From IMG/VR virus record IMGVR_UViG_2534681835_000020: a DNA stretch of 14,562 nt, one strand, 5' to 3'. The notes under the pieces were generated by a model. That model searched no databases. It was not told the DNA's origin and saw only the letters and a list, made by a program, of their open reading frames with translations. The position numbers and the translations under genes were made by a program. This document shows, one piece after another, positions 1,534-3,391 of this stretch. Source of the DNA: a virus (lineage: Duplodnaviria; Heunggongvirae; Uroviricota; Caudoviricetes). The first letter of the stretch is position 1. The number at the start of each line of letters is the position of its first letter.

Positions 1534-1712
1534 ATGTTTTTCATATTGTGGTCTTTGGCGTATTCGACATTTGACGCAAATAAAACTCTCGCCATTCGTT
1601 GCAGGAGGGCCATAGTTCAGAATGCTGTAGATAAGGCGACTGATCCGTCTGGAAATATCAGTGTTGAGAAGTTTATTAATGCGTTACACAGGAACAGGAA
1701 GCAATCAGCAAC
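1534..1712 (+). pseudogene. 5' fragment of an unknown gene interrupted by the IS element
   Basis: ORF 1534..1761 runs in frame into the IS left end. Removing the IS and one copy of the target duplication joins it in frame to the ORF ending at 3391 (...KQSAT|FFKGVHGK...). The start codon is uncertain (no clear ribosome-binding site at 1534). Confidence 0.5.
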
Positions 1713-1766
1713 TGAACCGCCCCGGAAATCCTGGAGACTAAACTCCCTGAGAAAGAGGTAAACAGG

Positions 1767-2094
1767 ATGACTAAAAATACTCGTTTTTCCCCCGAAGTCC
1801 GTCAGCGGGCGATTCGTATGGTTCTGGAAAGTCAGGATGAATATGACTCACAGTGGGCGGCAATTTGTTCCATTGCCCCAAAGATTGGCTGTACGCCGGA
1901 GACTCTGCGTGTCTGGGTTCGCCAGCATGAGCGGGATACCGGGGGCGGTGGATGGTGGGCTCACCAGCGCTGAACGTCAGCGTCTGAAAGAGCTGGAACG
2001 TGAAAATCGTGAACTGCGCCGCAGTAACGATATCCTTCGCCAGGCTTCCGCTTATTTTGCGAAGGCGGAGTTCGACCGCCTCTGGAAAAAATAA
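1767..2094 (+). pseudogene. IS orfA (helix-turn-helix / leucine-zipper transposase subunit) with an internal frame break
   Basis: ORF 1767..1973 (frame 3) and ORF 1837..2094 (frame 1) each carry part of one orfA-like protein; the frame changes near ggcggtggatggtggg (~1945-1955). The orfA stop sits in the A-rich ctctggaaaaaataatg region typical of the IS3 programmed frameshift site. Confidence 0.8.
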
Positions 2095-2982
2095 TGCCGC
2101 TGCTGGATAAGCTGCGTGAGCAGTACGGGGTCGGACCGGTATGCAGTGAACTGCATATTGCCCCGTCAACGTATTACCACTGTCAGCAACAGCGACATCA
2201 TCCTGATAAACGCAGTGCCCGTGCTCAGCGCGATGACTGGCTGAAGAGAGAGATACAGCGCGTATACGATGAAAATCATCAGGTGTACGGTGTGCGTAAA
2301 GTCTGGCGCCAGTTGTTACGCGAAGGTATCAGGGTGGCCAGGATGTACAGTGGCGCGCCTCATGGCGGTTATGGGACTTGCCGGTGTTCTCCGGGGTAAA
2401 AAGGTCCGTACTACCGTCAGCCGGAAAGCCGTTTCCGCAGGCGACCGCGTAAACCGTCAGTTCGTGGCAGAACGTCCTGACCAGCTGTGGGTGGCTGATT
2501 TTACTTACGTCAGCACATGGCAGGGCTTCGTCTATGTGGCGTTCATCATTGATGTGCTTGCCGGATGTATCGTGGGGTGGCGAGTCTCATCGTCTATGGA
2601 AACGACATTCGTGCTGGATGCACTGGAGCAGGCGTTGTGGGCCCGTCGTCCGTCTGGCACCATCCATCACAGCGATAAAGGCTCTCAGTATGTGTCACTG
2701 GCCTATACGGAGCGACTAAAAGAAGCCGGATTACTGGCATCAACAGGGAGTACAGGCGACTCGTATGACAACGCGATGGCTGAGAGCATCAATGGTCTTT
2801 ACAAAGCGGAGGTAATACACCGTAAGAGCTGGAAAAACCGTGCAGAAGTGGAACTGGCCACACTAACGTGGGTGGACTGGTATAACAATCGACGATTGCT
2901 GGGAAGGCTGGGCCATACTCCTCCGGCAGAAGCAGAAAAAGCTTATTATGCTTCCATCGGAAACGATGATCTGGCAGCCTGA
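2094..2982 (+). pseudogene. IS orfB (DDE transposase catalytic subunit) with an internal frame break
   Basis: ORF 2094..2399 (frame 3) and ORF 2269..2982 (frame 1) together give an integrase-core transposase (DQLWVADFTYV ... HHSDKGSQYVS ... DSYDNAMAES). The frame changes near gccaggatgtacag (~2338-2348). Confidence 0.8.
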
Positions 2983-3027
2983 GTTCACAGATAAAACACT
3001 CTCCAGGAAACCCGGGGCGGTTCAAAC

Positions 3028-3391
3028 TTTCTTTAAAGGCGTACATGGAAAGGAACTGGACGGCGTTATTAAATACCTCAACGATACAAGACACGCGGCA
3101 AAAGCGAACGTTCAAAACTTAAATGGTCAGCAGCTTTATGGATTGTTAGTTGGTGGTGGCATCATAAACGCAGCAGTATTAGCGGGGATGCTAAAAACGG
3201 CTGCGTTTGTTGTTCCTGCTGCTGGTGCCGTAGGCGGAGCCGCGAAGGCATACGAAAGCCCTGTTATACGAAATGCCTTGTTACGTTTGGCAAATACGCC
3301 AAAAGGTAGCACAGCATATGACAGAGCGATCAGTACGGTCACACAATCGCTCACCAGAGTCGCACAGGCATCACAAAAAGAAGCTCAATAA
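3028..3391 (+). pseudogene. 3' fragment of the IS-interrupted gene, encoding a glycine-zipper-like hydrophobic segment
   Basis: Frame-2 ORF continuing from the IS right flank to the stop at 3391: ...FFKGVHGKELDGVIKYLNDTRHAAKANVQNLNGQQLYGLLVGGGIINAAVLAGMLKTAAFVVPAAGAVGGAAKAY... Confidence 0.55.

Follow-up and report, generated by a model that had tools for sequence, protein, structure and literature searches.

A predicted P22 gene 16-type ejection gene reduced to a split remnant by a deletion and an insertion sequence in a genomic island of Escherichia coli

Positions 1534-3391 of a 14,562-nucleotide stretch of DNA recorded as viral (Caudoviricetes; IMG/VR record IMGVR_UViG_2534681835_000020), the whole of which is referred to here as the window, very probably contain a doubly damaged pseudogene of a 701-residue homologue of gp16, an ejection protein of phage P22, rather than a new defence or toxin gene. 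The ancestral gene stood in a gp14-gp7-gp20-gp16 module, together with a convergent sieA-like gene, in a P4-type island at tRNA-Thr (thrW), and its product, to judge from the literature on P22, would have completed a trans-envelope DNA channel at the cytoplasmic membrane. Two lesions, which may have occurred in either order, have destroyed it: a 12.4-kb illegitimate deletion with 1-bp microhomology, which begins shortly after the integrase and takes away the gene up to and including codon 546, and the insertion of an IS629/IS1203-type insertion sequence (IS) into codon 581, accompanied by a 3-bp duplication. Because the native start codon and ribosome-binding site are gone and the IS splits what remains, residues 547-701, we infer that the remnant yields no functional product. 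We found no point that contradicts its being a pseudogene, and the caveats given below concern the mechanism of one segment of the protein. The first-pass annotation of the window, which was made from the sequence alone, had proposed that the IS interrupts a gene for a protein of about 180 residues, not assignable to any family and a candidate for island cargo of a defence or toxin-like kind.

The element at 1713-3024 (plus strand) is 1312 bp long and has TGAACCGCCCCGG... termini, with inverted repeats that agree at 22 of the first 25 positions. Direct copies of the target-site duplication AAC bound it at 1710-1712 on the left and 3025-3027 on the right, where the intact alleles described below have a single copy. 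These features, its orfA/orfB arrangement with a -1 frameshift signal, the ALIL frameshift pseudoknot at 2049-2165 (Rfam RF01497, 120.9 bits; the Rfam scan of the locus gave no match besides this one) and the RefSeq labels "IS3 family transposase, programmed frameshift" and "IS1203 family" in related genomes identify it as an IS3-family insertion sequence of the IS629/IS1203 type. A size of this class and a 3-bp duplication are typical of IS629, and the element shares with IS629/IS1203 its length class, its termini, its duplication, two overlapping open reading frames (ORFs) and the pseudoknot. It differs in that orfA and orfB are each disrupted by one extra G (at 1950 and 2341) relative to the IS at the same site in E. 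coli O111:H8 strain 8E; these extra bases may be sequencing errors. Removal of the IS and one AAC copy in silico joins 1534-1712 to 3028-3391 in frame, giving a 543-nt ORF of 180 amino acids, a frame that is kept with a duplication of 3 bp and would be broken by one of 2, 4 or 5 bp. To this extent the first-pass annotation was borne out: the IS with its AAC duplication and the in-frame join were both recovered, and its two fragments do come from one gene, intact alleles of which cross the junction uninterrupted.

That gene, however, is not one of about 180 codons. The IS-free reconstruction with its flanks was searched against 5426 complete E. coli genomes, and the whole reconstruction was found in none of them, no record covering at least 80% of the reconstructed locus. 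Part of it is matched by 506 genomes. The common match begins at window position 1609, continues uninterrupted across the IS site and through the stop codon, and corresponds to the 3' end of a 2106-bp gene labelled "injection protein" or "hypothetical protein." Uninterrupted alleles, 701 residues in length, are present in about 500 of the genomes and are the intact homologues with the predicted junction that the earlier reading had called for; since they run straight over the junction, the in-frame join is not a matter of chance. Strain 05_3471 (locus L005) shares with the window the thrW locus and the integrase-proximal DNA, and three BLAST segments relate the two: window 1-1609 corresponds to L005 13786-15395, window 1609-1713 to L005 27818-27922, and window 3025-4522 to L005 27919-29419, the last overlapping the preceding segment by the duplicated bases. 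Relative to L005 the window lacks 12,423 bp, such that L005 15395 is fused to L005 27818 with a microhomology of one G. The resulting joint, placed at window 1609-1610 by these segments and by the junction alignment to L005, has on its right side the 701-codon gene, beginning with the first base of codon 547, and on its left side non-coding DNA located, in L005, 34 bp upstream of the island's first helix-turn-helix (HTH) gene.

The left flank of the deletion (1215-1608) is non-coding DNA 3' of the integrase, which continues into the HTH gene in L005. The integrase-proximal stretch, including 1534-1608, is found between the integrase and the HTH gene in 281 genomes and, among the matches listed, is mostly unannotated. 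The reading frame from the ATG at 1534 through 1608, 25 codons in all, is therefore translated intergenic DNA; no Shine-Dalgarno sequence lies ahead of the ATG, and the chance of an in-frame start is 1 in 3. What survives of the gene is codons 547-701, that is 155 of 701 codons or the C-terminal 22%, the first 546 having been deleted. The 5' piece of the remnant (1609-1712, plus strand) comprises codons 547-580 and two bases of codon 581, as confirmed by a frame check, and is 100% and 99% identical to the intact alleles at L001 6001-6105 and L005 27818-27922, respectively; its 104 bp are unannotated in RefSeq. The 3' piece (3028-3391, plus strand) extends from the last base of codon 581 to the stop and encodes residues 582-701, an assignment that draws on its homologues and on its RefSeq label in strain 8E, "injection protein, incomplete, missing N-terminus."

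These results leave next to no probability for a stand-alone membrane or oligomerising protein of about 180 residues, carried beside the integrase as defence or toxin cargo and inactivated by the IS alone. Such a gene would fit the in-frame ORF from the ATG at 1534 and a hydrophobic segment with a maximal Kyte-Doolittle hydropathy over 19 residues (KD19) of 1.79, and the island does bear defence-type cargo elsewhere, for example a restriction-modification (R-M) pair. Yet homology to real genes begins only at 1609, inside a 701-residue gene whose intact alleles already refute the proposal, the first 25 residues derive from intergenic DNA without a Shine-Dalgarno sequence before them, and the IS-free 180-residue ORF is absent, at the coverage given above, from all of the genomes searched. 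Moreover, Pfam, NCBIfam and PADLOC scans of both the 180-residue reconstruction and the full-length 701-residue protein returned nothing useful, just a sub-threshold Htt_bridge match; the PADLOC scan gave no match that would speak for defence or toxin cargo. Among the matches listed, proteins of 550-800 residues outnumber short homologues, and the nine short matches that were read look like fragments of longer proteins (seven lack a start Met and one is garbled).

The family, which had been considered unassignable, can be named from the intact protein. The 701-residue protein aligns over residues 19-700 with phrog_770, "DNA transfer protein" (E 3e-161), and the NCBI label of the family is "injection protein"; tblastn against phage genomes matched gene 16 of P22 (E 4e-39), ST64T and Sf6, the best match being ORF13 of the P22-like coliphage N7 (67% identity). 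In the undeleted islands L001, L003 and L005 the gene occupies the last place of a gp14-gp7-gp20-gp16 ejection cluster, its upstream neighbours being gp14-like (PF11039/DUF2824, E 4e-61), gp7-like (PF25688 P22_gp7, E 7e-73) and gp20-like (PF16928 Inj_translocase, injectosome translocase, E 5e-58), and the P22 map and the island agree in having 14-7-20-16 in this order and then a convergent sieA (sieA-like in the island). The shared order and the family matches therefore identify the gene as a homologue of P22 gene 16, which encodes one of three ejection proteins. The ratio of nonsynonymous to synonymous substitution rates (dN/dS) between the intact alleles of strains 05_3471 and W60 is 0.14, and the gene is therefore constrained where it is whole. 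In the window the gp14, gp7 and gp20 genes are deleted, only the convergent sieA-like gene is left of the cluster surroundings, and the complete reading frame of about 600-700 residues expected of the family is missing.

In P22, gp16 leaves the virion ahead of the DNA and is required for DNA passage over the cytoplasmic membrane (PMC10883804), and in-situ cryo-EM described in a 2026 bioRxiv preprint shows it as the membrane-spanning end of a gp7-gp20-gp16 channel. The homology of the island protein to P22 gp16 (609 residues, likewise phrog_770) begins at about residue 210 and reaches the C-terminus (29.9% identity, the match with E 4e-39), and the two share a C-terminal layout in which a TGQ motif is followed by an uncharged Gly/Ala-rich stretch and then by YES-IRN-LLRLANT. 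In contrast, the island protein is 92 residues longer, its N-terminal third is divergent, and its hydrophobic segment exceeds that of P22 by about 10 residues and is far more hydrophobic; the window, in addition, keeps only residues 547-701, and these are split by the IS. ORF13 of phage N7 (Lederbergvirus), the closest homologue in a phage genome, aligns over residues 69-701 and likewise follows gp7 and gp20, but N7 is a complete P22-like phage, whereas the gene of the window comes from a P4-type integrative island that has neither capsid nor tail genes. A functional analogue is gp16 of T7, which is ejected, spans the cytoplasmic membrane and forms the inner-membrane component of the T7 ejectosome, and a review (PMC8954989) describes putative C-terminal transmembrane regions in all gp16-like proteins. 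The T7 protein has, however, no detectable sequence similarity to the island protein, is 1318 residues long and carries a transglycosylase domain.

The deletion also bears on the position of the remnant. Where the deletion is absent, about 12.8 kb separate the gene from the integrase gene upstream of it, and its adjacency to the integrase in the window, which had been taken as a sign of cargo, is an artefact of the deletion. An origin of the deletion by recombination between two IS copies was considered and excluded, the target duplications being intact on both sides of the IS and the joint lying 104 bp from it. Elsewhere in the same island, IS3-family (IS629-like) copies with adjacent deletions are present in strains 2014C-3011 (human stool, L009 3368-4581) and JL05 (milk, L008 4629-5842), and these copies in other strains suggest recurrent and independent IS-driven erosion of the gene or the island.

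The deletion and the IS occur together in a single complete genome of the 5426, that of strain 8E. The window is 99.97% identical to strain 8E over its whole length, the only differences being four single-base indels and one single-nucleotide polymorphism (positions 335, 1950, 2341, 2557 and 8581). The indel at 335, in an A run, frameshifts the integrase, those at 1950 and 2341 affect orfA and orfB of the IS, and the fourth, at 8581, falls within a T run; they may be genuine mutations or, alternatively, errors of sequencing at homopolymers or of another kind. When the 155-residue remnant is used as a query, only 11 homologous proteins are recovered, most of them plainly fragmentary: one (P0002) may reflect another IS insertion near the same site and a second (P0003) a contig break at the IS. 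Homologues of the remnant bear the precomputed family label PF26808. A promoter and terminator scan found promoter-like sites at chance level. The locus is thus already known in kind: both the phage protein family and the IS that interrupts its gene are familiar, and RefSeq flags the pseudogene.

It might be argued that the deletion created a gene before the IS arrived, with the 155-residue C-terminal domain, preceded by a new 25-residue leader, being expressed from the early (HTH-operon) promoter of the island, and that its product might have been a partner of the neighbouring SieA-like protein or a decoy for it. The deletion did place the remnant 34 bp short of the usual start of the island's first early gene, an in-frame ATG is present, and the retained part holds the SieA-sensitivity sites discussed below. 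However, the in-frame start has the 1-in-3 chance already noted and lacks a ribosome-binding site, the promoter-like sites do not exceed the chance level, a deletion-only allele is found in none of the 5426 genomes, and the restriction of the deletion-plus-IS allele to one complete genome gives no sign of selection. Taken together, we regard such a new gene as highly improbable and retain the pseudogene reading.

The segment that had been described as glycine-zipper-like proved to be hydrophobic and Gly/Ala-rich, as stated, but the comparison with a glycine zipper does not hold. It is the uncharged stretch LLVGGGIINAAVLAGMLKTAAFVVPAAGAVGGAAKA (3143-3250, plus strand; island residues 620-655), defined by its hydropathy and by alignment to P22 gp16. 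For the reconstruction, Pfam gave no Gly-zipper family match at E values up to 0.1; the segment contains a single GxxxGxxxA string (GAVGGAAKA), and it lies in the C-terminal region of a virion protein that is large and soluble, not in a glycine-zipper membrane protein. The maximal KD19 of the island gp16 homologue compares with 1.43 in ORF13 of phage N7 and 1.18 in P22 gp16. A search with the 120-residue 3' piece against 1.84 billion cluster representatives matched 265 of them, and in almost all the match is the extreme C-terminus of a protein of 600-700 residues. When the C-termini of 86 full-length representatives were aligned, columns 36-72 were found to hold about 30-37 residues that are almost charge-free and rich in Gly, Ala, Ser and Thr, although about half of the homologues have a charged residue, usually Asp, in mid-segment. 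Conserved flanks border it on the N side (FFKG...L-G...L--TRRA...TPTGQ) and on the C side (R-YES--VRN-LL-L---P-GS). The segment is present across 86 diverse full-length homologues and is therefore a family-wide trait of the C-terminus, not the mark of a separate small membrane protein.

A possible role for this region is indicated by P22 mutants that escape exclusion by SieA, in which Leavitt et al. (PMC10883804) found the gp16 changes G532W and P546S. P22 G532 aligns to island G614 (encoded at 3125-3127), the near-invariant Gly of the TGQ motif at the edge of the segment, and P22 P546 aligns to island T638 (encoded at 3197-3199), inside it. By analogy, the segment region of gp16 probably acts at the cytoplasmic membrane or at the gp20 interface, where SieA interferes. 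In an AlphaFold2 monomer model of the C-terminal 120 residues, built with 39 homologue fragments, the flanking helices are confident (predicted local distance difference test, pLDDT, up to 97), the last part of the segment is modelled as a helix with moderate confidence, and the model is compatible both with and without a transmembrane hairpin.

Several caveats attach to this role for the segment. The pLDDT falls below 50 at fragment residues 33-59, which include the first 21 residues of the segment. The P22 segment is weakly hydrophobic, with no KD19 window reaching 1.4 or more, and the 2026 preprint describes P22 gp16 as being without a strongly predicted transmembrane helix. According to the account of Perez et al. 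given in PMC10883804, residues 476-609 of P22 gp16 are dispensable for membrane association in vitro. A sequence search of the PDB returned chance matches only (E near 0.8).

The gene that converges on the remnant (3410-4021, minus strand) is an intact neighbour and not part of the pseudogene. Its product, a 203-residue multi-pass membrane protein, matches the SieA-like phrog_7745 (E 4.4e-4), P22 SieA (BLASTP E 8e-8) and the experimentally validated SieA of HS1 (34% identity over 118 residues, E 2e-9), the motif NRYPGEAR being found in both the latter and the window protein, and the gene lies at the same position as sieA in P22 and HS1. Its similarity to a validated SieA, its RYPxEA motif (PMC10883804 gives an account of this motif and of the types of SieA) and its convergent position after gene 16 mark it as a putative divergent SieA-family superinfection-exclusion homologue. 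In the cases examined by Leavitt et al. (PMC10883804), sieA was located within P22-like prophages only; unlike the sieA genes of that survey, the sieA-like gene of the window lies outside any P22-like prophage. The island allele of strain W60 (L011 10284-12389) has Ser at residue 614, the equivalent of the SieA-escape site G532 of P22 gp16, in place of the Gly that is near-invariant in the family (98% of the 86 homologues). The W60 island is without a sieA-like gene, and an unrelated 132-residue gene on the opposite strand occupies that position.

At the start of the window (1-1214, plus strand; ORFs 1-447 and 318-1214) is the P4-type tyrosine integrase of the thrW island, frameshifted by the absence of an A near 335 when compared with the intact 404-residue WP_016234638.1; in strains 8E and 05_3471 it is intact by annotation and stands beside tRNA-Thr. 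In the parent island, as delimited at L005 13786-28918, L003 4910-20834 and L011 1-12389, a P4-type set consisting of integrase, AntA-B, Ash, Icd and TOPRIM-DUF927 primase is directly followed by the P22-type gp14-gp7-gp20-gp16 genes, of which the W60 variant has gp20 and gp16 only. The primase-gp14 junction is present in 328 of the 5426 genomes (about 6%), and the island occupies two or more integration sites, thrW and yicC-dinD among them; its arrangement is thus both widespread and conserved. It is conceivable, though rather unlikely, that the parent island is a phage satellite whose own ejection proteins enter the virions of a P22-like helper, these proteins being matched or resistant to SieA-type exclusion; no description of satellites encoding ejection proteins, nor of this island, was found in the literature. 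If this were true, the adapted part would be the C-terminus of the island's gp16, with its unusual hydrophobicity and its richness in Gly and Ala. Alternatively, the island may be a fossil hybrid: a P4-type island and a P22-like prophage would have stood in tandem at thrW, and a deletion between them would have joined the two. Tandem integration of this kind is present in E. coli HS.

The remaining content of the window includes a type II R-M pair, carried as island cargo at 7890-9597, in which an HNH-type restriction endonuclease (7890-8549, plus strand; PADLOC REase_II, E 5e-21) and a DNA cytosine-5 methyltransferase (8464-9597, minus strand; E 1e-143) are convergent and overlapping. Positions 10393-13118 form a typical CP4-type island tail, which in the RefSeq annotation of strain 8E comprises frameshifted pseudogenes of a CbtA-family toxin and a YeeU-family antitoxin, DUF987, a JAB/RadC-like protein, an antirestriction protein and a DUF932 protein. 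In the non-coding DNA by the integrase, at 1358-1410, CGCTGACAAAGCG(G/C)AAT occurs twice with a spacing of 36 bp, each copy forming a small hairpin followed by a T-rich run; these repeats may be binding sites for a regulator or recombinase, or terminators.

The remnant itself matters little, being one more IS- and deletion-eroded gene of a genomic island of Shiga toxin-producing E. coli. It does lead to a slight correction of the annotation, in that the flagged 3' piece and the 104 bp at 1609-1712, its 5' counterpart, are parts of one pseudogene, and it demonstrates that "cargo next to the integrase" can arise as an artefact of deletion. More interesting than the remnant is the survival, through the decay of the locus, of an intact and divergent SieA-like exclusion gene. 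Furthermore, the parent island, in which a P4-type replication module is paired with P22-type ejection genes, provides a context that may deserve a separate look.

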